Assembly (NCBI GenBank): GCA_963842945.1
Contig: CAWJIM010000019.1
Location: 685,893-749,892 of the forward strand
Direction of reading: 5' to 3'
Length of the DNA: 64,000 bases
DNA from: an uncultured Gemmatimonadales bacterium
Lineage (GTDB): Bacteria; Gemmatimonadota; Gemmatimonadetes; Gemmatimonadales; GWC2-71-9
Shown: one piece after another, positions 10,315-27,703 of the stretch
How positions within the stretch are numbered: position 1 is the first letter of the stretch
How the letters are laid out: each line of letters opens with the position of its first letter
Translations under genes and position numbers: made by a program
The notes under the pieces: generated by a model
The model's input: only the letters and a program-made list of their open reading frames with translations
Told to the model about the DNA's origin: nothing
The model's database searches: none

Positions 10315-11329
<1,015 letters not shown>

Positions 11330-11411: not shown

Positions 11412-12497
11412 TTACGCCACCGGGACGATCGGGTCCAGCAGATCCTCGAAGAAGTCGAACCCGCCGAGGAACACCAGATAGATCTCCTGGAGCGAGTGCA
11501 GCTCCTCCTCGCTCAGCGGCTCGCCGTCGGCGCCGGTGATCACCGGCTCAGCGCCCTGGGTCACGGTGATGGTCGCGAACGGATCGCCGTTCACCTCGAC
11601 GTTGTAGGTCCCGGCATTGTCGGCCCAGTTGCCGACGATCGTCACCGTGCCGTGCGGGCCGCGCAGCTCCAGGCTCGAGGACACGGCGCTGGTGTTCATG
11701 TTCCACTCTTCCTCGAGGTCCATCCGGAAGTTGCCGCGGGTCGGCACGCTGAGCGCGTAGTCGAACGTGATGATGTTTTCGGAATTGAGGTGCATGTCGA
11801 GATCGAAATTGACCCGGTCCTCACCGTTGCTCACGAACCCGGAGACGTTGATGGTGGCCGCAGTCTGGCTGGCTGTGGCGCCAACCGTGTAGTCGAGGTA
11901 GGTCACGTTGCCCGAGACCAGCTCGATCCTGATGCTGGCGGAATTCGTGGTCTGAGTGACCTCGACGTCGGCGTACCCGACTTCCTGCAGCGGCGTGACC
12001 GGCTGGCCGCTGATCGGATTCACCGTGTACACGATGAACCGCACCCCGTTCGAGGGCGCGCCGGTCCGGTCCGAGACCTCGTACTCCAGGGTCTCGGCGT
12101 TGCGGACGAAGGTCTTGCCGAGATGCTCCTCGAGAATCGCCGCCCGGCTCCCGACCGGCCGCATGCCGGCGGTCGGCACGGTGTAGAGGCGGGCAAGGGT
12201 GCTGGCATACTCCCGCGCGCCCGACTTGCCGGTCGCCATGATCTTGCTCGGCGCGGCGCGAAGGGCGACCGCCGCCGACGACTCGCCCAGCGTGGTGCTG
12301 ATCGCCGGCATGGCGCTCTGGAAGCCGTACATCGCGTCGCTCTCGTACGAGGCCTCGATCGCGTCGATGTCGGACGAGGTCCCCGCCGGATCGAACGGCG
12401 CGTCGGGAGCGGTGGAGTCGTTCCCACCGCAGCCGGTCATGAGGCCGATCAGGGCCACGACCGCGAGGGGTCGCATTGCGTAATGCGGGACACGCAT
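11412..12497 (-). CDS. Hypothetical lipoprotein
   Basis: Signal with lipobox LMTGC, beta-rich body, RBS GGAGG upstream. Confidence 0.75.
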   Translation of the reverse strand: MRVPHYAMRPLAVVALIGLMTGCGGNDSTAPDAPFDPAGTSSDIDAIEASYESDAMYGFQSAMPAISTTLGESSAAVALRAAPSKIMATGKSGAREYASTLARLYTVPTAGMRPVGSRAAILEEHLGKTFVRNAETLEYEVSDRTGAPSNGVRFIVYTVNPISGQPVTPLQEVGYADVEVTQTTNSASIRIELVSGNVTYLDYTVGATASQTAATINVSGFVSNGEDRVNFDLDMHLNSENIITFDYALSVPTRGNFRMDLEEEWNMNTSAVSSSLELRGPHGTVTIVGNWADNAGTYNVEVNGDPFATITVTQGAEPVITGADGEPLSEEELHSLQEIYLVFLGGFDFFEDLLDPIVPVA

Positions 12498-12630
12498 GGG
12501 GTATCGCCTCCGTACGTCGGGTGCAGGGATTGGGTCCGAAGCTGCCGTCGCAGGCCCACTTGCACGACCGGTGCAGGCGGGTGCGCGGGCTCGAGGTCGG
12601 CCCGGATTTCGGCCGGCCGGGAGGCGAGGG

Positions 12631-12645
12631 GCAACGGCCGTGCCG
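12631..12645 (-). promoter_or_regulatory. Sigma-54 (-24/-12) promoter candidate
   Basis: CGGCACGGCCGTTGC gives GG-N10-GC, close to the TGGCACG-N4-TTGC consensus, upstream of the lipoprotein gene. Confidence 0.55.
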
Positions 12646-12655
12646 AAAGGGAGGG

Positions 12656-12784
12656 TTACTTCTTGGTCACCGGGAGGCCGGCCTCGTTCCAGGCCGTCCA
12701 GCCTCCCAGCAAGGCCCTGGCCTTCTTCCATCCTGCCTGACGGAGCTCTCGCGCCACCCGGGCGCTTGTGGCTTCGTCCTTTCA
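12656..12784 (-). repeat. Displaced 3' end of the antiporter-rhodanese gene, copy 3 (probable original host end, attR-like)
   Basis: Starts at TGA and encodes KDEATSARVARELRQAGWKKARALLGGWTAWNEAGLPVTKK*; 12714-12784 is identical to 24619-24689 (71 bp). Confidence 0.9.
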
Positions 12785-13393
12785 AATAGATGTTCCCAAA
12801 CCACAAGGATCGGTACGGGGTAAGTCGGTACGCTTCCGTTAGTTTCCGACAATGAACCGCGCTTCGGTCGAGACCGTTTCCTGTGCAAGCAACGGAGTAG
12901 CGGAGAGCAGCGGGCAGAACACCAGCAAGCTGGTTGATCTCACTAGCACTCCCGTTTGGGCGGTTGGCCTACACTGCTCCTGCCACCTTCGTGGGAACTA
13001 GGCGGGGTGACGTCGTTTGTGGCGCCCTGGAGCAAGGTGGACTTTCAGCCACGAACGGTCGCGGGACTCACGAGATGTCGCGGGGCGACCGGCCCATCGC
13101 GGCGATGGACCGGGCGGACCGACTGATGCTTGGAGCAGTAGCGGGGATCACGACCCAAACGTAGACGCCGTTCCACTTCTACGATGTGGCGGCCCAGAGG
13201 ATGGGGGTGCGGGAGGCGCGTCAAGTGCCCGAGCGAAGCGTCCCCGCGTTATCTCTAGAGCTTACCCTTGTTTCTGTACCAGCTACTTCGGGCGGCCCGA
13301 AGACTTACGAGTTCACCGTGATGCAAGGGAGAGTGGAGTTCCTTAACGAGAAACCGTTTTAGCCCTTAGCTGGCATTCAGCTCGAACCCACAG

Positions 13394-13422
13394 CGGAATC
13401 TACGGACCGAGGGTCCAATGGG
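13394..13422 (+). repeat. 29-bp direct repeat, copy 1 (copy 2 at 19428-19456)
   Basis: CGGAATCTACGGACCGAGGGTCCAATGGG occurs twice. Confidence 0.9.
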
Positions 13423-13476
13423 GTCTGGGAGTTTCATGATTGCCCTCCCTACCGGGTATCACCCGGCATTTCGGCC

Positions 13477-13878
13477 TCACTCCGGCGGGTGATGAGCCGC
13501 ATGATTGGTCGTGTCAGCCGTCGCATCAGGGCTCGGCATCGCCTTCCGCCCGGGTGCCGTTGAGTCTTTCATCATCCCCATCATGCCCCCACGCTCCATC
13601 ATCTGATGCATGCGCTCCTGCATCGCCTTCCGCTGAACGACTAGCTCGTTTATGACGGCCGCCATGGACTGCACCTTCTGGTTGCCGCTTGTCCGATTCA
13701 TCCGATCCACAAGGCTGTCGAGACGGCGGTTGAGGGAATCCATCATCATCATCGACATCTGATTCTTGCCCGCGATTTCACGATGACCATCAGGAGTCGA
13801 CGCCCCGGGCTGCTGCGCGGCAACCGTTGAGGCGCTCAAGACCAGAGCGGCGATGCCGCCGACTAGTCGTGACATCAT
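13477..13878 (-). CDS. Secreted Met/His-rich putative metal-binding protein
   Basis: Signal peptide (STVAAQ), MSMMMM and MMGMM tracts, HAAHH tail. Confidence 0.7.
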   Translation of the reverse strand: MMSRLVGGIAALVLSASTVAAQQPGASTPDGHREIAGKNQMSMMMMDSLNRRLDSLVDRMNRTSGNQKVQSMAAVINELVVQRKAMQERMHQMMERGGMMGMMKDSTAPGRKAMPSPDATADTTNHAAHHPPE

Positions 13879-13905
13879 TTGTAGCCTCCGATTCGGTTTC
13901 CCAGC

Positions 13906-14214
13906 TTACGTCTGGACCCGTGACCACCACACGTAGCCCCCCAACGCGAGCAGCAGCAGCCAACAGGTCCAGTACGCCCACACCGTCCAACGCGGTCTCG
14001 CCTCCCCCAGGGAAGTGTCCAGATGGTGCTTCTGGTACATGGCCAGCGCGTGCACCACTCCACCCACCACCAAGAGCGGTACCGCCATTGTCTCCAAGGC
14101 CTCCTTGAATAGCAGGGCGAGGCCAGCTCCGAGCACACCAGCACCTAGACCGCCAAGCAGCTCTGTTCGCGCTCGCTCGCCGATGTACCTGCTGCTGGTC
14201 CGAAGCACCGTCAT
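13906..14214 (-). CDS. Small membrane protein
   Basis: Three hydrophobic segments, RBS upstream, lies in the copper operon. Confidence 0.6.
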   Translation of the reverse strand: MTVLRTSSRYIGERARTELLGGLGAGVLGAGLALLFKEALETMAVPLLVVGGVVHALAMYQKHHLDTSLGEARPRWTVWAYWTCWLLLLALGGYVWWSRVQT

Positions 14215-14348
14215 ACGCGCCTCACCAAGGAATCGACGGAAACGATAGCTCGGTTCTCATGAAGAACCGGTGAAGGTCGTGCGAGACTACCTTCAACGGT
14301 CACAGCCCTCGGCTGCACGGAAACCCACTGCAGCAGAGACATTAGCGG

Positions 14349-16529
14349 CTAGATAGCCGAGCGGCGCAGCAGCTGGGCATTCACGGCCACGATGATTGTG
14401 CTCAGTGACATCAGGACTGCTCCAATAGCAGGCGAGAGCAGGATGCCTTGCCGTGCCAATACCCCGGCGGCAAGCGGGATCGCCACCACGTTGTAGCCTG
14501 CCGCCCACCACAGGTTCTGGACCATCTTCCGGTAGGAGGCCCTGCTGAGCCGCACGATGCGCGGCACGTCTCTGGGGATCGCTCCGAACCAGCACGATGT
14601 CCCCAGCCTCAACTGCGACGTCGGTGCCAGCGCCGATGGCCACGCCAACATCGGCCGAGACCAAGGCCGGGGCATCGTTGACCCCGTCGCCCACCATGCC
14701 GACCCTTTCACCGGCTCGCTGAAGTTCTTGAATCTTGTTGACCTTGTCTTGCGGCAAGACCTCGGCGAACACTGTGTCGATGCCCAGCTCGGCAGCCACG
14801 GCCTCCGCCACCGGGCGTGCATCGCCGGTCAGCATCACCACTCTGATGCGCTGGTCGTGCAGCTCCTCGACCGCTGCCTTGGATTCCGGGCGTACCACAT
14901 CCGCCACGATGAACACGGCCAGCGCTTGCACGCTATGCTCACTGCCCGCTTCCTCGGCCAGGAAGATGGCGGCCTGTCCTCGCCTCGCGGCCTGATCCAT
15001 GGCTGTGCGCAGGGAATCGGGAACAACAACAGAGCGCGCCTTGAGCAACGCCGGGCCCCCTATCAATAGCGTCCGACCATCAACCCGCGCGCTGACCCCT
15101 ACGCCGGGAATGGCGCGGAAGTCGGTGGCTGGCGGCGAGACGATTCCCCGTTCCTTGGCAGACCGGACGATGCCCTGTGCGATGGTGTGCTCCGAGTCCC
15201 TCTCGACCGCTGCTGCCAGCTGCAGCGCCTCCTCGTCGGTAATGCCACCAGCGGTGGCGATGCCGACCACACCGAACTCGCCCCGCGTCAGGGTTCCGGT
15301 CTTGTCGAAGACCATGGCGGTGAGATTGCGGGCCTCCTCCAAGCCGCGCCGGTCCCGCACCAGGAGCCCAGCCCGTGCGCCCAGCGTGGTGGAGATGGCA
15401 ATGACCAGCGGCACGGCCAGGCCAAGGGCATGGGGGCAGGAGATCACCAGCACGGTGACCAGGCGCTCGACCGCGAACGCGGGATCGCCTCGGATGGTCA
15501 TCCACGCCACGAACGTCGCCGCCCCCGCGACGATGGCCGCAATGGTGAGCCAGAATGCCGCCCGGTCAGCCAAAGCCTGCGCCCGCGAGCGTGAGGACTG
15601 CGCCTGTTCGACCAGGCGCATGATGCCAGCGAGGGCGGTCTGTTCGCCCGTGCCGGTGACGCGGACACGTAGCGACCCAGCACCGTTTACCGTTCCGGCG
15701 ATCACACGGTCGCCCGGGCCTTCTTCACTGGTCGCGACTCGCCAGTGATCATGGACTCGTTGACCTCGCTCGCACCCTCCTCAACTACGCCATCGGCCGG
15801 GATACTCGCGCCGGGGCGTACCAGCACGAGGTCTCCGACCTTGAGCGCGCTGATCGGGACTTCCTCGACCTCCTCACCCGCCACTCGGAGCGCGGTGTTC
15901 GGCAGGAGCTTCGCCAGCTCACGTAGGGCACCCTGGGCCTGGGAAATCGACCGCATCTCGATCCAGTGGCCCAGGAGCATGATCGTGACCAGCGTGGACA
16001 GCTCCTCCCACAGCGGCATGCCCGGATAGCCCAGCGTCACGGCCGCGCTGAAGACGAACGCGACTGAGATGGCCAAGCCGATCAGCGTCATCATGCCGGG
16101 AAGCCGGGCGCGCAGCTCACGCCAGGCACCCTGGAGGAACACGAGTCCGCCGTAGAGGAACACCGCCGTCCCGAACACCGGCGCGATCCACTGTTGGCCG
16201 GGCAGATTGGGTGGTGTGTACCCGAGCGCCCGGGGCAGCATGTGGCCCCAGCACGAGCGTCGGAAGGGTGAGCGCCAGCGAGATCCAGAACTTGTCCCGG
16301 AACATCGCTACGCTGTGACCCGCATGTTTGTCGTGGCCTTCGTGCCCTGGATGCTCATTGTGTCCGCCGTGGCCCAGGTGGCCAGCGTGGCCTGTCATTT
16401 CTGGGTGTTCGGGGTGGCCCACCGCGACTGGCTCCTCGGCCATGGCACCGTGAACGTGATCATGAGCATGCCCCGGGGCGGTTGCCCATCGCCATTCCCT
16501 CCGGATGGCCGATCGGTGTGGTCCCTCAT
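14349..16529 (-). CDS. copB: Copper-translocating P1B-type ATPase, CopB-like (several frameshifts)
   Basis: His-rich N-terminus, [33 protein letters not shown] and MSLST motifs spread across frames. Confidence 0.9.
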
Positions 16530-17064
16530 GTCGCACTCATCTCCCTGGAAGTCTGCGCTCGGGCGCTCCCGATCCTGCCCCACGGCTTGTACACCGACAG
16601 TGCGGTGACGGTGAGCAAGACCAGAAGGCCACCCACCGCATGCACCACGAGCTGGATGCGCAACAGCCTGAAGTCGCCGGTGGACAATGTCGTGGCCACT
16701 GCGATTCGGGCCATGCGACTCACGTTCGGGATGTGCATCAACAAGACGCCCGTGGCGACCGTCGTCAGAACGAGCTTCGCCACGATCCAGTAGTGACGGA
16801 ACAGCCCCCACTCCGTCCCAAGTGCCTGAACGACTCCTGAGATCAGGGTGGCGAGGCTCGACGGAATGATGACAGCCCATCCAATCGGCTCCATGCTCCG
16901 ATAGGCGGCGCGTGCCATGTCGTCGTCTCGGCTGACGATGCCGACAACCGCGAGGGACAGGTAGCGGCAGCCGCGCCGAGCCAGCCAACCGATACGGTGA
17001 CGTGCGACGTCAAGACGAACTTGCGTAGGCGAGACGACATCATTCGTGGGCTCATAAGACTCAC
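16526..17064 (-). CDS. DUF2269-like membrane protein (frameshift near 16960)
   Basis: HVTVSVGWLG, WGLFRHYWIVAKL and LSVYKPWG motifs. Confidence 0.7.
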
Positions 17065-17105
17065 CTCAGTGCTGGTTCCGCACGGTAATGGTTAGGCTTG
17101 ACGGC

Positions 17106-18579
17106 CTACTCGTGCTCGTGATCGGGCATTACACCTCTGGGCATGCCCTCCTCCGGGTTCTCATCCCGATCTCCAGCGTGCGCCCGCTGCAGCAGCGTCG
17201 GCCGTAGCCGGACGTACAGCGCGAGGCCAGCAGGTGTGCGGGTGCCATAGGTGTCCTTGAGATCCTGGGGCACGAGGTTGAGCGAGCCCCGGAGACCCAG
17301 GCCGAGACTCGCGCCGCCGTACTGCACGACCTCCCGCACATAACCGAGCACGAGGCTGGACACGTTGAAGCGGGTCTCTGGGTTGATACCCGGCACGACC
17401 AGCTCCTCGGCGCTTTTCTGTACCCACTCGGCCCGGCCGAAGATGCTGTTCCGCTGGTCGAGCTGCAGGTTGGTCTCCAACAGGAGGCTGTGCTCGAACC
17501 CCTGCGACGGCTCTCTCGGCACCGTGTGCTTGTTTGCGCCGTAGACCAGCGCGCTGGCCCAATCGCCATCGCGGGCGATTCGCCTGGTGTACAGGATAGA
17601 CGCACTGAGCCGGTGCTGGTTTTCGTCGGGGTGCAGCTCCTCGGGACTCTTGAGGTAACCGTAGCTGGCCGCCATGCTCCAGTGCGGGGTCGGATTCGCT
17701 GTCAATCGCCCGCCGTAGGAGTCGAGCGCGCCGAAGTCGAAGTCGTAGCGGTCGTCATCGGGCTCGCGGCCCTGGAAAAGCGTGCCTTCCACCTGCACGG
17801 TGCGCGTGAATACGCCCGCCGTGACGACACCGTAGGTAATGTGGGTCGCGTCTTGCCAATGGTGCCCAAGTGGGGCGAACGGGTCGTTCTGGGCCGATGG
17901 ACGGTGCATGTAGGCCACCGGCCCGATGGCGGGCTCGCCAACAGGGGCCGCGAAGATTGAGACGCCGAGATTCCTCCCGACGGGCACCTCGTAGCGCGCG
18001 GAAAGCTCCATGAACAGATCGTGCGGGTGCTGCCGATCCCGGAGCGGCTCGCCTTGGTACGACTCGCCGGTCTGAAGCAAGCAGCGGGTAGCCGCGAGCG
18101 CCGACGGTGAGCGGTTCAGCGCTGAGCATTCCATGCAGGTGGAGCATACCGCGCCCGACCGGACGCATGGCCATGAGCATCGCCCAGTTGGTGCTGCCGA
18201 CCTGGTCGTCACCCCGCACTGTGCCTTGGTGGTCGTAGTACAAGGCCACATCTCCATGGACCATCAGCGTCCAGCGGTCGGCCATGAAGTGGTAGGCACG
18301 CATCGGAGACGCGTCGGGTAGCCATGACGTGCCGGAGCCCATCCTGGTCATGGGAATACCGAGCGGGCGCGGCGGCATCCCCATGCCCGGCATCTGCCCG
18401 GTGTTGGTGGTGTCACGCATGGCCATGGAGTCGGCTGACGTGTCTGCGTGCTCGGGCTGGTGGTGATGCTCGTGCTGCTGGGCACCGGCCACGGACCGAG
18501 CCCAGAGCAGGGCCAAGGCCAGCATCAGGAGCGCGTGCGGGTGCCCGGCCGCTTTTCGCCTGGCCAGTCGGTCAGGCAT
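17106..18579 (-). CDS. Putative outer-membrane beta-barrel metal-handling protein (frameshift near 18080)
   Basis: Signal peptide, HEHHH and Met-rich N-terminus, SGTSWLPDASPM, DRQHPHDLFMEL, HHWQDATHI, amphipathic beta strands. Confidence 0.75.
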
Positions 18580-18581
18580 CG

Positions 18582-18644
18582 TGATCCTCCTAGTCGTGGT
18601 GACCCTGGTGCCCGTGCGGCCCAGGTGAGCGGACTAGGCGATCA
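18582..18644 (-). promoter_or_regulatory. RBS-sequestering hairpin linking the leader-ORF stop to the downstream gene
   Basis: mRNA UGAUC-G-CCUAGUC pairs with GACUAGG-AG-GAUCA, which contains the AGGAGG SD; inner CCUGG/CCAGG stem. Confidence 0.7.
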
Positions 18645-19035
18645 GTTGTGGGGGTGGAGTATCCGGTGGAGGAAACGGCGGAGTGGGCCTGCCGACGGGC
18701 GAGATCGACCGCCACCCGGTGGCTAGAAGGTCATCAACTGTCGCACGCGATGGTGGGACCGCCGTGCTGGACGACCCGGTGCATGGCGAAACCTGGGCGC
18801 ACTCGGACGCGGGACAGTGGGCGCACCCGTGATCGTGGCGCTGGCTCCAAGATTGAAGGTCGTGTTCGTGTGCCATCGAGGACGAGGCTGCATGCTGCCC
18901 GGCCCGCTCGTGTTGGGCGCAGTGGGGCCGTTGCAAGGCGTCCACCCCGACGCTCGGCGTGGCTACGATGCCCAGGGCGAGCATGAGCAGACGAAGGACC
19001 CGAGAGGGCCACGAGTTGGGTGTTCCGACCATCAT
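18634..19035 (-). CDS. Secreted His/Cys-rich leader protein (CutF/CruR/DUF2946-like)
   Basis: Signal-like N-terminus, HDHGCAHCPASEC, C-terminal PPPDTPPPQLIA. Confidence 0.6.
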   Translation of the reverse strand: MMVGTPNSWPSRVLRLLMLALGIVATPSVGVDALQRPHCAQHERAGQHAASSSMAHEHDLQSWSQRHDHGCAHCPASECAQVSPCTGSSSTAVPPSRATVDDLLATGWRSISPVGRPTPPFPPPDTPPPQLIA

Positions 19036-19451
19036 GATTGGGACCATAGGCGCACCGACAATAAATCGCAAATGGAGCACGCCACCCCGGTAGCGTCCGG
19101 TTTTGACTGTAACACCTCCTATCTGTAGGTTGGTGGTGGCAAGCATCCCCGCCGGGGAGGACCTATGGCAGGGGCCAACTGCGGTTGCACCAAGGGCTGT
19201 TGCGATACAGGGTGTTGCTGCGGTACCAGCGCCTGCGAGTGCGGGTGAGCGCGGCGGGCGACTGAGCGAAGGCCGGGGAGCGTCCCCTGCCTTCTTCCGT
19301 TCTGCTACTCCACCCGCGCCGTCGCGGGGTCCATGAGCGCGAAGATGTCCTTCACCGTCCAAACCCATAGGGCATCGCGCCCCGATGGCCACCGGGCGTT
19401 TTGTATAAGTCAAAACCGGACACCAACCGGAATCTACGGACCGAGGGTCCA

Positions 19452-19619
19452 ATGGGAGCAAGATCGAAGGGGAACCCACCCCGGAAGCGGGGACCGAAGC
19501 CAGACACCTTGGTCCTGCCCGGCAAGTGGGAGAAGAACGTCGGGAAGGCCCTCAAGAAGCCACCGCCCAAGGCCAGCTGGCCCAAGCCACCGAACAAGAA
19601 GGGCCGGGGCGGCAGGTAG
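19452..19619 (+). CDS. Small Lys/Pro-rich hypothetical protein
   Basis: MGARSKGNPPRKRGPKPDTLVLPGKWEKNVGKALKKPPPKASWPK; ATG lies inside the 29-bp repeat. Confidence 0.5.
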   Translation: MGARSKGNPPRKRGPKPDTLVLPGKWEKNVGKALKKPPPKASWPKPPNKKGRGGR

Positions 19620-19658
19620 CCCCGGCCTTCGTTTTGACTTCTTGCCTAGCCCTGTGCG

Positions 19659-19802
19659 TCAAGTACCTACTCCTGGTTTTTTCACTACTTGTAAACCCGC
19701 TTCGTTCCACGCGATCCAGCCACCGACCAGCGCTCTGGCCTTCCTCCATCCCGCCTTTCGGAGCTCTCGCGCCACCCGGGCGCTTGTGGCTTCGTCCTTT
19801 CA
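19659..19802 (-). repeat. Displaced 3' end of the antiporter-rhodanese gene, copy 2
   Basis: Starts at TGA and encodes KDEATSARVARELRKAGWRKARALVGGWIAWNEAGLQVVKKPGVGT*. Confidence 0.9.
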
Positions 19803-20010
19803 GGAGAACGATCTACTAACACCAAGTGTCCGCGGATCCTGCCCGTCGGCCTTGTACTGGATCGGGAGCGGCAGGACACGCGGATCGTCGGGCGTCGCAG
19901 GCCCACTTGCACGACCGGAAATACCTTTCCGCTTTGCTCTGGCCGCTGCCAATGCCCAGCACTATCCTTTCTCAACTTCCCATTCCGACGTCCAATGCGA
20001 CAGGCCCTGA

Positions 20011-22951
20011 GTGGCAGCGCTGCCTGACGACCTGCAGGCGGCACTCGCCGACCGCTACAGAATTGACCGCGAGCTGGGTCGCGGTGGCATGGCCACGGTC
20101 TACCTCGTCCACGACCTGAAGCACGATCGCCGGTCGCTCTCAAGGTGATGCACCCAGAGCTTGCCCCCTCCTCGGGCCTGAACGGTTCCTGCGGGAGATC
20201 AGGTTCGTGGCGCGGCTTCAACACCCCCACATCATCACCGTGCTGGACTCCGGCGAAGCCGCCGGGCAGCTCTGGTACACGATGCCCTACATACGGGGCG
20301 AGACCTTGCGCCAGCGACTGCGCCAGGAAGTGCAGCTGCCGGTTGAAGCGGCCGTGGACATCGCTCGGCAGGTGGCGCTCGCGCTCGACTACGCGCACCG
20401 CGAGGGGGTGGTCCACCGCGATCTGAAGCCTGAGAACATCCTCCTGACAGAAGACCAGGCGCTAGTCGCGGACTTTGGAGTGGCCAAGGGGCTGGAGGCA
20501 GGCGGCCGGGCGCAGCTCACCGAGACGGGGATGGCCGTAGGTACCCCCACCTACATGTCCCCCGAGCAAGCCAGCGGCGGGGCAGTGGATGCTCGCTCAG
20601 ACGTCTACGCACTCGCCTGCGTGCTTTACGAAATGCTCGCGGGCGAACCGCCCTACACTGGCTCCACGCCCCAAGCCATCTTCGCCAAGCGAGTCTTGGA
20701 GCCGGTGCCGCACGTGCGCACGCTGCGTCAGAGCGCGCCGGAAGGGGTCGAGCAGGCGATCACGAAGGCGCTCGCGACGGTCCCGGCGGATCGGTTCCAG
20801 AGCGCCGCAGAGTTCGCCCGGTCGCTCATGGTGGCACCTCCGACGGAGGTAGTGGCCGCCACTCCCGCCGCGCCTCAGGTTACTCCAAAGAGCGAACGGC
20901 AGGGAATGCCGCGCCGGTTCCTGGCTCTCGGCCTGGCGACGATTCTCGCCCTGGGAGCCGGGGGCGCGTTGCTGTTGCGCTCTAGGGCCACCCCTGCGGC
21001 GCTTGATGCTGACCTTGTGGCTGTCGCCCCGTTCGACGTACTCTCGCCCGGCCTTGAGCTGTGGCGTGAAGGTCTGGTGGATCTCCTGGCGCGCAGCCTC
21101 GACGGTGCGGGCCCACTCCGCACCGTCTCCCCGACGGTAGTCATCCGCCGGTGGGATGGCCGGGCGGACCGATCCTCAGCTGAGGCGCTCGCACGGCGCA
21201 CGGGAGCCGGACTCGTTATTTACGGGTCGGTCGTGCCCGAGAGCCGCGATTCGGTTCGGGTAACAGCCGCCGTACTCGACGCCGGACGCGCCGAGGCCGC
21301 CGCCGAGGCCGAGGTGCGCGGCCCCGCCGACCAGCTCGCACGGCTCGGCGACTCCCTTGCCCTGCGATTGCTCGCTGAGCTTGGGCGCGCCCGACCGCTG
21401 AGCGCGGCGCGCTCGGGCGGAGTCGGCTCGCGCTCACTGCCGGCTGTCCGAGCCTTCCTGCGGGGGGAACAGTGGTTTCGGCGCACCGCGTGGGACTCGG
21501 CCCGGGCGAGCTATGAACGTGCGGTTGAGCTGGACAGCACTTTCGCGCTCGCGTATTGGCGGCTCGGTGCCGTTCGCGACTGGCAAGATGGCTTCAGTGG
21601 ACTCCCTCTCGCGGGCCTACTATCGCCTCGCTGGCGAGCGCAACCACGGGCTCCCACCCCGAGAGAGCCTGCTGATGACGTTCGACTCATTGAAGGGGAC
21701 CCTCCTCGACGAGGGCTTTCTCTCCGACTCAGCCTCGGAGCAGCAGGTGCAGCGGCTGTTCCGTATTGCCGAGGAGACGACGCGACGGTATCCGAATGAC
21801 CCAGAAGGTTGGGTGGCGCAAGGCGAGGCGGGAGTGCACTTCGGTGCGGGCCGAGGGGTAAGCGATGAGACAACCCTCAGCGCGTTTGCCCGTGCCATCG
21901 CGTTGGATTCGGCCTACGCTCTGAGTTACATCCACGCATGGCAGCTGGCAGCGTCGCTCGACGACTGGCCTACGGCCCGCCAGTACGCACTGGGCTTTCT
22001 CGCCCTACGCCCGGGGCGGAAAGAGGCGATCGCTGCGCGGACGGCCATCCACATACTCAATCGGCCCCCGGCGGGCGAGGTAGGCCGCCTGTTGGACACA
22101 ATTCCCCTGCACGTCCTTATCGCTGTCGTCAACGCGCTTCGTAGCCACCACCGACTCCGAGGAGGTCGGGGTGGCAGTCGGTCGGGCGTTCGTCGCCGCG
22201 CCGCCGACCCCAGACGGGCCAGAACTAGATAGAGAGACTCGGGAGGCTCTTTTTGCGGCCACCCTCGCCTATCGTGGGCATCTTCGGGAAGCCTCCCGGC
22301 TCCTCGCCCGCCACCCCGGGGTCATGGCGTGGGGTACGTTCACCGAGTTGGCGCTGCTAGGGCTGATACCGGCGGACACTGTGGACGCCGTGTTCGAGCG
22401 CCAACTTCGCGAGGGTCCTACTCGCCATGCGATCGGGCACCACCTCCGTCTCGGTTTCCCGCTTCCATGGTGGGCCGTTAGGCGCGACACTACCAGGCTC
22501 AAGCGCTATGCCTCGCGTCTCAGCTGGCGAGGACCGGCGGAGAACGTGCCGCTATTGGATCGCTATCTGCATGCGGCCTCGAACGCCTACCTGTCGCTTG
22601 CCCGAGGCGACTCGGCGGAGGCGGCGGCTCGCTTCCAAGCCCTCCCGGCAACGGTGGGAATGGTGTGGTACGAGCGGCTGACGCTCGCACGCTTGCTTGC
22701 GGCGCTCGGGCGAGAACGCGAGGCACTGGACGTGCTAGACCGCGAGTTCCCGTCTGGGGCTTGCCATCTCTGCACGTGGCACGTGGGCCTTGGAGCGGGC
22801 GCGCTTGGCCGAGAAACTGGGCCAGCCCGAGAAGGCCCGTCACTGGTACGGCTTTGTAGCCCGGCTGTGGCGGCACGGCGACCCTGAGCTGCGGCCTGCC
22901 GTGGACGAAGCGCGTGAGGCGCTGACGCGACTTACCGGCGAGCCGCAGTGA
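20011..22951 (+). CDS. Ser/Thr protein kinase with TM and TPR-like C-terminus (multiple frameshifts)
   Basis: [38 protein letters not shown]. Confidence 0.85.
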
Positions 22952-22998
22952 CCTGTACCTGCTTCTTCGTTGGGTTTGGCTACTGCATCGCGTGCCCG

Positions 22999-23595
22999 CT
23001 ACTCAGGCTCGTGGCCGTGATGCAAGGATCGCAGAGGGGGCTGGAGCGCCATGCGGCGGCGAAGCTCCATCAAGGCGATCATGAGATCGCCGCTCTTGGC
23101 CATCTGATCTCTTGCGATCGTCCGTTGTCGTTCGGCCAATGAGCGCGATTCGGCGGCATCCGCACGCGCTTGCCGCGCCTGCCGACGCATCGCTTGCGAG
23201 CTGAGGACCAGCGGCGCAAGCGTTCGCACCAACTCCTCTGGCTCGAACGGCTTCCGCAGGAAGGGCACCGGAAGGAGGTCGGGTGGGAGGTCGACCGCTG
23301 CCGACATGGCCACGACGGGTAATGCAGGGCGGCATTCCATGAGTACCGCGATCAATTCGGAGCCGGATACGACCGGCATCTTCAGGTCGGTCAGGACCAC
23401 GTCGAGCAGCTGAGCCTCGTCCCGCTCAATCACCCGAATGGCATCCTCGCCGTCGGCGGCCTCGATCACGGAGGTTCGCTCCAGCTGCAGCATCCTGCGG
23501 AGTGATCGGCGCAGCGATGGATCGTCGTCCACGATGAGCAAGGTCGCTCCGTCGGGGATCTGGAAGCACGTGGTCTGGGTATCCACATTGCTCAT
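22999..23595 (-). CDS. Response regulator (receiver plus coiled-coil tail)
   Basis: LLIVDDD, VLTDLKMP, FLRKPF. Confidence 0.85.
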   Translation of the reverse strand: MSNVDTQTTCFQIPDGATLLIVDDDPSLRRSLRRMLQLERTSVIEAADGEDAIRVIERDEAQLLDVVLTDLKMPVVSGSELIAVLMECRPALPVVAMSAAVDLPPDLLPVPFLRKPFEPEELVRTLAPLVLSSQAMRRQARQARADAAESRSLAERQRTIARDQMAKSGDLMIALMELRRRMALQPPLRSLHHGHEPE

Positions 23596-23976
23596 AATGC
23601 GCTTCCGTGTCCAAGCTGCCCTGACCACCAAAGTATGCACTCGGTGCCCCGGATGCACAGATGTGTTGCCGATCACAGAGGGCGGGCGGAAAGGCTCTAT
23701 CTATGGCCACATGTCGGCAACAGACTCACCTTCCGATCCGCCCGACCGGTCCCGCGTTCTCCGCTGGTACCAGCGAGGATCTCCGCCAGCACTCCCGCAC
23801 GCTCCGCCAGCACGCACGCCGGCTGATCGAGAGCAGCCGCGAGCTTCGGGACCGCCTAGGCAGCTTCCTCAAGCCACCCCCGCCCACCCAGTCAGCCTGA
23901 CCCCCACGCTTCGCCGTGCGTCAGGGGCGGCCCGGAGACAGCGCGGATCAGATGATCCGCGTTTGTCCTTTCGGGG

Positions 23977-24369
23977 TCATGCCTCCCTTCGCATTGGTCG
24001 CTCCGCCATGGCCAGCGCCACTGATTCCAGCAGCGCCCCAATGCTGAACGGTTTGCGGAGCGTGGGCACCGCCTCAGCGTGCGGTCCGATGGGCCTGGCG
24101 AGATCGTCCAGGTGGAGGATGGGAAGATGGGGGAACAAGCGCCGCAAGTGGCCGATCAACTGTTCACCACTCATGTGCGGCATGTAGCTGTTGGTGAGGA
24201 CCAGATCGAACGAGATACCCGCCGTCTTGGCCGCCGTCAGACCTGCCTCGCCATCCCCTACTGCAACGACCTCGTAGCCCGCTTCCTCTAAGGCGCGCAC
24301 GATGAGTGCGCGGACGGCGGGCTCGTCGTCCACCACAAGAATGCGGGACGGTCGGTCGGTCGGCGGCAT
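23977..24369 (-). CDS. Single-domain response regulator with atypical phospho-site
   Basis: ILVVDDE and LRKPF present; DLVLTNSYMP has N where the phosphoacceptor D is expected. Confidence 0.8.
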   Translation of the reverse strand: MPPTDRPSRILVVDDEPAVRALIVRALEEAGYEVVAVGDGEAGLTAAKTAGISFDLVLTNSYMPHMSGEQLIGHLRRLFPHLPILHLDDLARPIGPHAEAVPTLRKPFSIGALLESVALAMAERPMRREA

Positions 24370-24551
24370 GGGCCGGTCGGTGCGGTCAGGGCAAGTAATC
24401 CGATATTCTACGCCGGACACTCAGCGCCGTCCATGGCCCAAATTGCCTATACCTCCCGGGCCGACAGCCCCAGCCCTAGTGCTCTACTGCACGCCGCCGA
24501 AGGGTGCAGTAGAGCACAAGCGTGTTCAATCCCGCTCAAACCAAGGGGATC

Positions 24552-26168
24552 CTATTCTGCCGGTTTGGCAGACACTGGTAACCCCGCCTCATTCCACGCG
24601 TTCCAGCCACCGACCAGCGCCCTGGCCTTCTTCCATCCTGCCTGACGGAGCTCTCGCGCCACCCGGGCGCTTGTGGCTTCGTCCTTTCAGGTACAGTAGA
24701 GGACCAGTGTCGCGTCGGGATCGAGCCTCCGCTCCCGCGCGAGGCGCACCGCGTCGTCGGGCGGCATCCGGATCGCGTCGCGGGCGATCGCGGCGGAGTC
24801 GCGATAGCTCCGCTCGGTCCGCACGTCCAGCAGGGTCACCGGCTCCCCGCGCTCCTGCAGGTCGCGAAGCTCCTCGATGGTGATCTTCTCCGAAAGCTGC
24901 GGCGCTTCGCCCGGGGCGGGCCCGAACGAGATCTCCTCCGGCTTCTCCGGCCGGGGCGCGGGCGCCGGGGCCTGCTCCGATCGCGCGCGGCGGAGAAAAA
25001 TCGCGATGCCGGCGCCGTGCACCACCACCGATAGCAGGACCACGAGGCAGGTGATCTGGAACAGGCGCACGGATCCCTCGACCCCCGCGAACACCGGCAG
25101 CAAGGCCAGGAGCAGCGTGCTCAGGCCGCGCGGCCCGAGCCACGCGATCAGCCGCCGGCTCCGCGGCTCGACCCCGCCCAGCCGCAGCACCGGGATCAGG
25201 ACCGCCGTGCGCAGCCCCAGCGCGAGCACCGCGAAGGCCAGCGTCAATCCGTCCGCCACCTGGAAGCCGGTCCAGATCACCGAGGCACCGAACGCCACGA
25301 ACGTGAGCAGCAGGAACATCTCGGCCGAGGCTTCGCCGTAATCCAGGAAGCAATCGCACAGCTCCACGTCCATCGCGGCCACCATCAGCCCGCCGGCGAA
25401 CGCCGCGAGGAACCCGCTGCCGCCCACCGACTCCGCGGCCGCGAACGCGGTGAACGCCACACCCAGCGCGTAGAGCGACTCGTAGTCCCGGCGCACCCCG
25501 ACCTTCGATCGCACCCGGTCGAGGAGGGCGATGGCGACGTAACCCACCCCCACGCCCAGCGCCGGCCCCAGGATGAAGAGGCCCATCGCGCGGCGCGAGA
25601 CATCGGCATCGGACGCGCCTCCCGCGCCCAGGGCCAGACTGGCGAGCACCACGACGGGGAGGAGGATCACGTCGTTGCTCCCGCTCTCGAGTCGGAGGGC
25701 CAGGCGTGCGGGGGGCGGGAGCGCCGGACTCCGGACCAGGGTCCGCAGGAGGACCGGGTCGGTCGAGGCCAGCGCGGCGCCGAGAATCGCGGCGCCGGCG
25801 GGCGGCAGGCCGAGCAGGAGCCAGGCGGCGAGGGCGATGAGCGCGGCCGGCAGGATCGTGCCCGGCCCCAGGATGAGCAGCGCGAGCCGCCGCTGCTCCC
25901 GCACTTCGCCGATGTCGACGGAGATGGCGTCGCTGAACAGCACCAGCACCAGGGCCAGCGTGGCGAGGACCTCGAGCGACTCCGACTCGAGCGAGAACTC
26001 CACCACGCCCAGACCGGCGGGGCCCAGCATGGCGCCGAGGAGGAGGAAGATCGCGACCTGGGGCACGCCCGACCGCTCGACCGCGCCCGACAGCAGCGAG
26101 GCGGCGATGATGACGACGCCGATGAGCGCGAGCGCGGCGACGAAGGGATCGTGGAACATGGTCCTCAT
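24552..26168 (-). CDS. Cation:proton antiporter (CPA1) fused to a rhodanese domain; probable selenoprotein with UGA at 24687-24689
   Basis: ASTDPV, LESGSND, WLGPRG; rhodanese LLDVR...LVLYCT-(TGA)-KDEATSARVA...ALVGGWNAWNEAGLP stays in frame to TAG at 24552. Confidence 0.88.
24659..24689 (-). promoter_or_regulatory. Bacterial SECIS-like element after the in-frame UGA
   Basis: GCGCC-CGGGU-GGCGC hairpin whose loop starts 22 nt after UGA, with G at loop position 2. Confidence 0.7.
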
Positions 26169-26220: not shown

Positions 26221-27703
26221 ATGCCCACGAGCGAGCCGACCGCCACCGCCATCCTGCTCACCATCTGCGGAATCCTGCTGCTGGTGAGCGTGCTCTCCAG
26301 CCGCGCGTCCCAGCGGATCGGGGTCCCGATCGCGCTGTTCTTCCTCCTCGTCGGCATGCTGGCCGGGTCCGAGGGGATCGGCGGGATCCCGTTTGCCGAC
26401 TACCGGCTCGCCTTCCGCATCGGGGCGGTGGCGCTGGCGCTCATCCTCTTCGACGGCGGACTCAACACCCCGCTGGACGTGGTGCGCCGAGTCTGGGCTC
26501 CGGCGGGCGTTCTCGGCACGGTCGGGGTCCTGCTCGTCGCGGGGCTGGTCGCGATGGTGGCACGGCTGGGCGGACTGCCCTGGCCCGCCGCGCTGGTGCT
26601 CGGGGCCATCGTCTCGTCCACCGACGCGGCCGCCACGTTCGCCGTGCTTCGGGCCAGCGGGCTTCAGCTCAAGCGGCGGGTGGCCGCGACGCTGGAGGTC
26701 GAGTCCGGCGCCAACGATCCCGCCGCGGTCATCCTGACCACCACGCTCGCCTCCAACCTCCTCGGCGCCGGGGCACCTCGGCCTGGGCGAGATGCTCGTC
26801 GAGATCGTCACCCAGCTGGTGATCGGGGCCGTGGTAGGCATCGGCGCCGGCTACGCCGGCCGCGCGCTCATGGCCCGGCTCCAGCTGATGACCGGCGGCC
26901 TCTACCCGGCGCTGATGCTCGCGTTCGGCTTCCTCTCCTTCGGGGTGGCAACGCTGGTCGAGGGGAGCGGGTTCCTGGCGGTGTATGCCACGGGGATCGT
27001 GCTCGGCAACGGTCCCCTGCCCTATCGCGCCGGTCTGCTGCGCATCTTCGACGCGCTCGCCTGGCTGGCCCAGATCGGGATGTTCCTGCTCCTGGGGCTG
27101 CTGGTGTTCCCCTCGCGCCTGGGCGAGATGGCGGGACTCGGGCTCGGCATCGCACTGCTGCTGGCGATCCTGATCCGGCCGCTGGTCGTCGCGCTCTGTC
27201 TGGCACCGTTCCGCTATTCGGCACGGGAGATCGCCTTCATCGGCTGGGTGGGCCTCCGCGGCGCGGTGCCGATCGTGCTGGCCACCTACCCGGTGCTGGT
27301 CGGTGCGCCGGGCGCGGACCGGATCTTCCACCTCGTGTTCTTCATCGTGGTGGTCGGCGCCATCATCCCCGGCGGCACCGTGGCCTGGGCGACCCGGCGC
27401 CTCGCCCTCGAGTCGCCCCAGCCGCCCGCGCCGCACGCCCTCCTCGCCATCGAGTCGCGGGTGCCGCTCGAGGGCGACCTGATGTCCTTCTATATAGACG
27501 ATGCGCTGGTGGTGTGCGGGCTGAGGCTGGACGAGCTGGATTTCCCCGAGGGCGCCGCGGTCGCGCTCATGGTCCGCGGGGACCGGCTGGTGGCGCCCAG
27601 GGGCAGCACCCGACTCGAGCCGGGCGACCACGTGTATGTGGTCGCCCAGGAGGAGGACCGGCCGTTCATCCAGCTGATGTTCGGAAGGCCGGAGGAGGAT
27701 TGA
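26221..27703 (+). CDS. Potassium/proton antiporter NhaP2/CvrA-like with TrkA-C domain (frameshift near 26775)
   Basis: GSEGIGGI, LFDGGL, SSTDAAA, ESGANDP, WVGLRGAVPIVLA. Confidence 0.9.

Follow-up and report, generated by a model that had tools for sequence, protein, structure and literature searches.

We report that the selenocysteine (Sec) codon of a bacterial selenoprotein gene is an insertion site for genomic islands that replace the 3′ end of the gene and leave it restored. The site is real, polymorphic and recurrent, and represents a target of a new kind. It lies in a 64,000-nt stretch of DNA (hereafter the window) from an uncultured Gemmatimonadales bacterium of the GWC2-71-9 lineage (assembly GCA_963842945.1, contig CAWJIM010000019.1, positions 685,893 to 749,892). 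The gene (24552..26168) joins an NhaP-like Na+/H+ exchanger (PF00999) to a C-terminal rhodanese domain (PF00581) with an in-frame Sec TGA; its product is about 538 aa long from the likely start (the mechanical start of the open reading frame (ORF) is 26357) and carries the motif YCT-U-KDE. Coordinates are those of the window, and genes and motifs lie on the minus strand unless stated otherwise; islands, repeats and missing stretches are given without strand.

The window holds three direct copies of the segment that runs from the TGA to the stop codon: copy 1 (12656..12784; 129 nt), copy 2 (19659..19802; 144 nt) and copy 3 (24552..24689; 138 nt), the last being the end of the gene itself. All are open and have their own stop codons, with TGA-to-TGA spacings of 7018 and 4887 nt, and no rhodanese-like sequence is found ahead of copies 1 and 2. 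Identity among the three begins at the T of the TGA (24687..24689), where the duplicated segment has its left edge in every orphan copy, and lasts for 44 nt; copies 1 and 3 are identical over 71 nt, and copies 2 and 3 additionally agree at 2 nt upstream of the TGA. Past the core, third positions are G or C at 24/27 in copy 1, 17/32 in copy 2 and 20/30 in copy 3. An earlier note on this DNA, made from its letters, had described the three copies, their shared 44 bp and the host-like third positions of the distal one, and our reanalysis agrees on each of these points.

That note also held that insertions had replaced the 3′ end of the selenoprotein gene, and relatives of the source organism bear this out. 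At locus L051 (genome G071; 97-98% nucleotide identity to the window) the gene ends in a segment matching copy 1 at 129/129 positions, followed by the conserved lipoprotein-like host gene that is its native downstream neighbour (11412..12497). L051 is thus an empty site and copy 1 the original host end, now an orphan. Two conspecific metagenome contigs, L034 and L035 (93-98%), carry a single insert measuring 798 bp from TGA to TGA; missing from both are 19803-24689, a 6-kb cluster between two 29-bp repeats, and a 186-bp stretch (13090..13275) that is missing from Logan run X7 as well. X7 holds the single-insert form on one contig at a depth of ∼50, and run X1 shows a 6035-nt skip corresponding to the absence of the cluster. 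The runs that hold the stretch come from soil and rhizosphere; those with small shares were excluded from use. The insertion site is polymorphic within the species; either gain or loss may separate the state of the window from the 798-bp state.

These relatives also refine the earlier count of two insertions of about 7.0 and 4.9 kb. Two islands there are, and the larger is composite: a small element plus a nested ∼6-kb metal-ATPase (copper) cluster (13423..19427, minus strand; small hypothetical genes and a heavy-metal P-type ATPase broken up by frameshifts; PF00122, PF00702), which is bounded by the 29-bp direct repeats (13394..13422 and 19428..19456) and absent in L034, L035, X1 and X7. The proximal island (19803..24551; 4.75 kb without its replacement end) is absent in L034, L035 and L051.

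A misassembly, or an origin of the copies as ends of independent rhodanese genes, is very improbable. The source assembly is 87% complete with 6% contamination and many frameshifts, and the proximal-island junctions (19802/19803 and 24551/24552) are spanned by no independent contig among those listed; in all four Logan runs examined, the listed contigs end in or beside the repeated block. Against such an explanation, the copy-1 junction and the copy-2 end recur in L034, L035 and X7, no rhodanese sequence precedes the two orphans, and the copies differ in family-specific ways beyond what assembly error creates. The frameshifts (10315-11329, 14293-16536, 20011-22951 and 26221-27703) affect host and cargo genes alike and are probably long-read errors, so that decay of the cargo cannot be judged from them.

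Cases are known from three species. Locus L033, in a distant species of the genus, carries an independent 2788-bp insert with PKD-like cargo; its orphan starts at the TGA, with 4 nt matching upstream. The host gene of L033 clusters with those of genomes G030 and G069, far from the gene of the window, and a tree with the five rows forced into one clade was rejected (p-AU, from the approximately unbiased test, 7e-43; 54 rows). In a sister species (locus L086, genome G082; ∼88% nucleotide identity) the end is shifted towards A/T from the TGA on and includes a compensatory pair in its selenocysteine insertion sequence (SECIS). Past this end come ∼530 bp, an 18/20 remnant of a copy-1-like end and a box which we take to be sigma-54-like (−24/−12); the corresponding box of the window (12631..12644) trails the native end in many relatives. 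L086 reads as an older, decayed case.

The replacement ends have features in common that set them apart from native ends. A signature at nt 81-111 after the TGA occurs in 6/65 3′ segments, namely copies 2 and 3, L034, both L033 copies and L086, all of which sit in insert-bearing loci; none of the other 59 segments has it. Scanning 185,579 species genomes for the signature returned one locus, which we do not count as a further case. The tree of the 81-nt ends is weak: the six signature rows plus one further row group at 91/85, and the six by themselves never form one clade in the bootstrap. Just ahead of the orphan TGAs lie short element arms. The arm of copy 1 (12785..12811) is in register with that of L033 (14/23 matches excluding the last 4 nt, shuffle p 0.0003), and the arm of copy 2 (19803..19829) is related to it as well (12/23, p 0.005), the 23-nt length having been set after inspection of the data; over the next 53 nt upstream only 13/53 match. 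Because one signature unites replacement ends from different host clades and the arms are related, the inserts form a mobile family. As the arm is shared, the TGA boundary may have been inherited from one origin.

Turning to the target itself, we infer from sequence that its UGA is read through as Sec. The in-frame TGA is kept in 37/37 aligned segments, the block that contains it is found in 86/102 other genomes of the genus, and the matches to both Rhodanese and NF041203 extend across it, with coding conserved on either side. The rhodanese domain matches NF041203 (rhodanese_LYCAU) best and shares the YC[AT]U motif with that (seleno)protein family; unlike its members, the domain here scores below the cut-off (95.6 versus 115 bits) and is joined to an antiporter. 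The apical stem-loop of the SECIS (24656..24670; nt 19-33 counted from the T of the TGA) has a 5-bp stem and a 5-nt loop, and is supported by covariation among 44 sequences: 100% of cells are paired, and 3/5 pairs show two-sided, compensatory changes (7 cells). The lower stem is paired in 81% of cells only, and folds of single sequences do not stand out (z −0.6 to −1.1, not significant). Every replacement end retains the SECIS, in line with the earlier proposal that Sec decoding is restored after insertion. The source genome encodes SelA (above cut-off, in three pieces), a candidate SelB (in pieces, the best at 235 bits versus a cut-off of 242) and two tRNA-Sec. It also holds a second copy of the selenoprotein locus (G000 C21:333189-334760; 64% identical) and, on C10 and C15, a second tmRNA and the second tRNA-Sec; these second copies are probably contamination of the bin (6%).

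Conservation along the gene peaks in the 44 nt that start at the TGA (24646..24689). In 26 orthologues selected for protein similarity this 44-mer ranks 1/1548 with a best offset of 0, scoring 0.962 against 0.936 for the best 44-mer elsewhere and a median of 0.802; 17/26 orthologues of other species have at most 2 mismatches to it. A first test had used loci chosen by a DNA pattern within the tested block and was redone with these protein-anchored loci; third positions in the block, at 0.925 against a median of 0.666, come from 41 such pattern-chosen loci and are partly circular. Genomes marked as unpublished (G003, G065, G095, G096, G140, G258, G405, G494) contribute to some of the tallies and trees; the covariation and protein-anchored conservation tests used none of them, and no main claim depends on them.

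In the earlier note the shared 44 bp were the core of an attachment (att) site and the UGA plus SECIS a dyad serving as attB in the manner of tRNA stem-loops. Neither idea holds up well. Judging by the orthologues, the 44-bp identity is genus-wide conservation and not the length of an att core; a block that is constant across the genus makes a good target and carries no information on where strands are exchanged. The junction is at nt 0 and the apical hairpin is centred 26 nt away, so that the hairpin, unlike an anticodon stem, does not form a dyad around the crossover. We propose that the hairpin need not be the feature read by the enzyme, and that the part played by the SECIS is to keep the DNA invariant: the site would be attractive because coding and SECIS constraints overlap, making 44 nt almost invariant across the genus, much like a tRNA gene.

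Several of the ends are mosaic. Copy 3, the predicted functional replacement end, is host-type at nt 0-70 and element-type after; the L034 gene end is likewise host-type over nt 0-70 and then copy-2-type. Copy 2, apparently the displaced replacement end of the older island, is element-type from nt 44, differing from the L034 end at nt 44, 45, 50, 58 and 68, three of these differences being shared with L086. A crossover therefore took place at nt 69-87, on entry of the proximal island or on its loss from the L034 lineage. The L033 orphan is element-type at nt 87-104 and host-clade-like in its terminal part, which places an exchange near nt 105-115. Separately, at L057 (2105-2420; genome G109) ∼315 bp interrupt the 3′ end of the selenoprotein near nt 85 after the TGA and bring an early stop.

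We consider it probable that the islands are decayed site-specific integrative elements, resembling cis-mobilizable elements (CIMEs), that accreted in tandem at a single site. In this model the type of recombinase, the position of the crossover, the sequence of events and the mode of transfer are all proposals. The att site of such an element would consist of a short arm followed by a spare selenoprotein end, from TGA to stop. Through recombination at or just inside the TGA, the gene would stay whole and keep a functional UGA, SECIS and C-terminus, while its former end would come to lie downstream, behind the arm of the element; the restored site could later receive a second element. The recombinase genes, most likely for a tyrosine integrase, would have been lost or would act in trans, and later homologous (RecA-type) exchange within the 130-bp repeats would produce the mosaic ends and could delete an island. 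Centred in the TGA of copy 2 we read from the sequence an imperfect 7-bp dyad with a 6-bp spacer (6/7 paired; 5/7 in L033).

Several observations weigh against site-specific entry. The mosaic ends put crossovers away from the TGA, so that exchanges are not confined to it. The arms of copies 1 and 2 are not significantly alike (10/23, p 0.07), and copy 1 has only 3/7 of the copy-2 dyad, with two mismatches just ahead of the TGA. The window has no match to the tyrosine recombinase family PF00589, as the earlier note had found by eye for integrases, and a profile built from 12 integrase frames of the genus (recovered at 8e-43 in the control) finds nothing in the islands of the window, L033, L034 or L086. 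That integrase family has matches in 23/103 genomes, with a tRNA within 1.5 kb at 18/27 loci, and none of the 27 loci is near the Sec gene. The gene-proximal island lacks an integrase too, contrary to the pattern described in PMC7563491. The PKD-like cargo of L033 (L033 4234-6369 and L134) shares 93% identity with a gene located elsewhere in G069, a sister species, and is common in the genus; 17 of the 20 loci with extra DNA downstream of the gene show no second full 3′ segment; and no copy was found in IMG/VR (four DNA scans) or in phage or plasmid collections.

Part of this evidence suits entry by homology with no dedicated recombinase, in which small circles carrying a TGA-to-stop segment enter by one RecA crossover at any point of the 130 bp of homology, the TGA boundary having been set once and retained because conservation starts there. 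The exchanges at nt 69-87 and near nt 105-115, the failure to find a recombinase, the host-like cargo and the shared arm, by which the boundary may have one origin, are all consistent with it. We nevertheless regard it as rather unlikely, in that the similarity of the arms is limited to ∼25 nt by the TGA (14/23 versus 13/53), as expected of a protein-binding site, and element-type sequence sets in at nt 44 in copy 2 and at nt 3 in L086, implying entry crossovers at or near the TGA; the formation of circles with this junction is also left unexplained. Local conservation of the arms and the element-type sequence close to the TGA in copy 2 and L086 are why we favour site-specific entry over pure homology.

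No recombinase gene was found for this site in any case; searches with the element ends brought up only a 55-bp upstream motif and cargo genes. In the source genome PF00589 has four matches, a XerC-like gene, a XerD-like gene and two truncated integrases beside tRNA-Leu, and there are no matches to PF07508, PF00239 or PF02371 (serine integrase, IS110) in the 87% of this genome that is assembled. Displaced 3′ fragments lie downstream of 4/54 of its tRNA and tmRNA genes, with islands at tRNA-Cys, -Leu and -Ala. At tRNA-Cys (G000 C19:273642-287929) two islands stand in tandem, their orphan fragments starting at the anticodon loop behind similar arms, and PF00589 has no match inside them. Islands that lack an integrase are usual in this genome.

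Two enzyme systems were considered and set aside. Integrative mobile elements exploiting Xer (IMEX) use XerCD at dif, and XerC- and XerD-like genes are present; compared by eye, the site is unlike the dif consensus. A 5-bp offset, CTTGT in the arms and ACAAG in the gene, is reminiscent of serine-integrase sites, and no such enzyme was found. The same genome has further protein genes of which a piece is duplicated a few kb away (C22:10419/15062, C6:114555/120998, C6:128307/130904, C5:171737/177048 and C20:60398/69706): two resemble 3′-end replacement, one 5′-end replacement, and two have the fragment upstream, with paralogy a possible explanation.

The region behind the selenoprotein gene is a hotspot. 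Among 43 loci holding both genes, the lipoprotein-like gene follows the selenoprotein end at 450 bp or less in 23 and is preceded by more than 450 bp of extra DNA in 20. Such variability would fit transformation with same-locus DNA of related species, homology in the conserved block serving on one side and an illegitimate join on the other, so that the replacement ends would be foreign orthologues. The proximal island indeed contains two pieces of host-like sequence. One (19893..19918), 90 bp ahead of the copy-2 TGA, is a 26-bp exact copy of the lipoprotein-leader host flank (12546-12571). The other (24479..24523), 37 nt after copy 3, is a diverged copy of the 21 nt preceding the TGA, followed by its inverted complement; it matches at 17/21, with all differences at third positions of the seven codons before the Sec TGA, and is the best match to the pre-TGA sequence in the 4.3-Mb genome besides the gene itself. 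Together the two halves form a perfect 14-bp hairpin with a UUCG-like loop (fold z −3.2), which was seen in none of L033, L034 and L086. Transformation of this kind is an improbable source of the islands: the signature is absent from the 59 other segments and reached a single locus among 185,579 genomes, and illegitimate joins are not expected three times at the TGA behind related arms.

A different kind of mobility is conceivable, though we think it doubtful: the islands could be minimal cassettes that a trans-acting recombinase moves and that stack at the Sec codon as in an integron. The circle would then comprise an arm of ∼25-100 bp, a spare TGA, SECIS and C-terminus, and captured genes of the genus, and each entry would swap the C-terminal half-site of the selenoenzyme; the hairpin after copy 3 could be a recombinase site or an RNA control site. 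Were this so, Sec-recoding regions would be a general and overlooked class of att site.

Orphan ends of this type are rare. A pattern requiring a non-G at position −5 found none in the 102 other genomes of the genus; a second search there gave 89 matches in 86 genomes and no orphan, and 61 matches in 58/400 genomes of the family included none either; a pattern for the downstream half found no copies beyond native ones and brought up G082. These patterns miss copies that are diverged, decayed or at contig edges, and G082 had escaped both genus-wide searches. The orphan pattern, blind to orphans with G at −5, gave none in GTDB and three loci in metagenomes. No parent integrative and conjugative element (ICE) or integrative and mobilizable element (IME) of the islands was found in the genome, metagenome, virus and plasmid sets scanned, and Rfam returned nothing near a gathering score. 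One IMG/VR match (L079; 42%) is rhodanese-like and not this segment. BLAST of 401 genomes, in which two candidates were scored each, missed copy 1 and is left out of all counts; the orphans that it seemed to return proved to be native genes.

The cargo of the proximal island consists of two receiver-domain genes and a Ser/Thr kinase-TPR gene. The receiver genes lie at 23977..24420 (PF00072) and 22999..23676, the latter with paralogues of 76-78% nucleotide identity elsewhere in the genome; the kinase with its TPR region (20011..22951, plus strand; PF00069, TPR_11) is in frameshifted pieces. In the older island, the 29-bp repeats mark a second, nested site of insertion or deletion, which overlaps the start of a small basic ORF (19401-19619). 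This ORF recurs with receiver-domain genes in two relatives (L059 3516-3684; L057 13846-14001), where it adjoins an lrp-like gene (window ∼4900), a second cargo hotspot ∼8 kb off. A ∼55-bp non-coding motif at 13022-13090 occurs upstream of unrelated genes in 5/102 genomes of the genus.

Gene-restoring integration is already known for tRNAs, tmRNA and housekeeping genes. What differs here is the target, the one spot at which an RNA signal holds the synonymous positions of a protein gene fixed, and the demand on the element, which can keep the gene intact only by bringing a functional recoding signal. If the finding holds generally, islands can be predicted at SECIS regions as they are at tRNAs. 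The replacement ends also supply natural swaps of SECIS and C-terminus for testing. Such islands are easily missed, because annotation ends the gene at the TGA and short-read assemblies break in the repeat. The literature searched contains no description of a SECIS or Sec-codon att site that we could find, although cases could be listed in supplements or in the target tables of TIGER and ProBord; the string 'seleno' does not occur in the main text of PMC12884075, PMC12540744, PMC5812530 or PMC13626063. Many islands enter protein genes and rebuild them (PMC12884075), an att site lies in the signal recognition particle RNA gene (PMC12540744), and RecA makes hybrids in tandem ICE arrays (PMC5812530); see also PMC13626063, PMC13326102 and bioRxiv 10.64898/2026.01.13.699239.

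The closest known systems are CIMEs, which are described as 1.2-13 kb long, stand in tandem at the 3′ ends of protein genes and have repeats of 8-60 bp, streptococcal targets of such accretion being fda, rpsI, rpmG and rplL (PMC7563491, PMC5704250). Like them, the islands described here are integrase-less, few-kb cargo elements in tandem at the 3′ end of a protein gene that stays whole, the newest beside the gene. Compared with CIMEs so described, the target here is a Sec codon inside the gene, 129 nt ahead of the stop, so that the spare end must supply the recoding signal; the repeat is ∼130 bp long and diverged; and no ICE or IME helper was found, the proximal element also lacking an integrase. 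Islands at tRNA and tmRNA genes reportedly use tyrosine integrases, with crossover in the anticodon loop (Williams 2002). They share with the present case a target frozen by RNA function and common to species, and a displaced 3′ fragment marking the far end; their stem is a dyad around the crossover, whereas the supported hairpin here is centred 26 nt from the junction. Prophages e14 and 21 sit in icd of E. coli, where a long replacement 3′ end with synonymous differences restores the C-terminus of the enzyme, much as we find for the selenoprotein; in contrast to those prophages, the islands carry no phage genes, and their boundary falls at a recoded stop codon.

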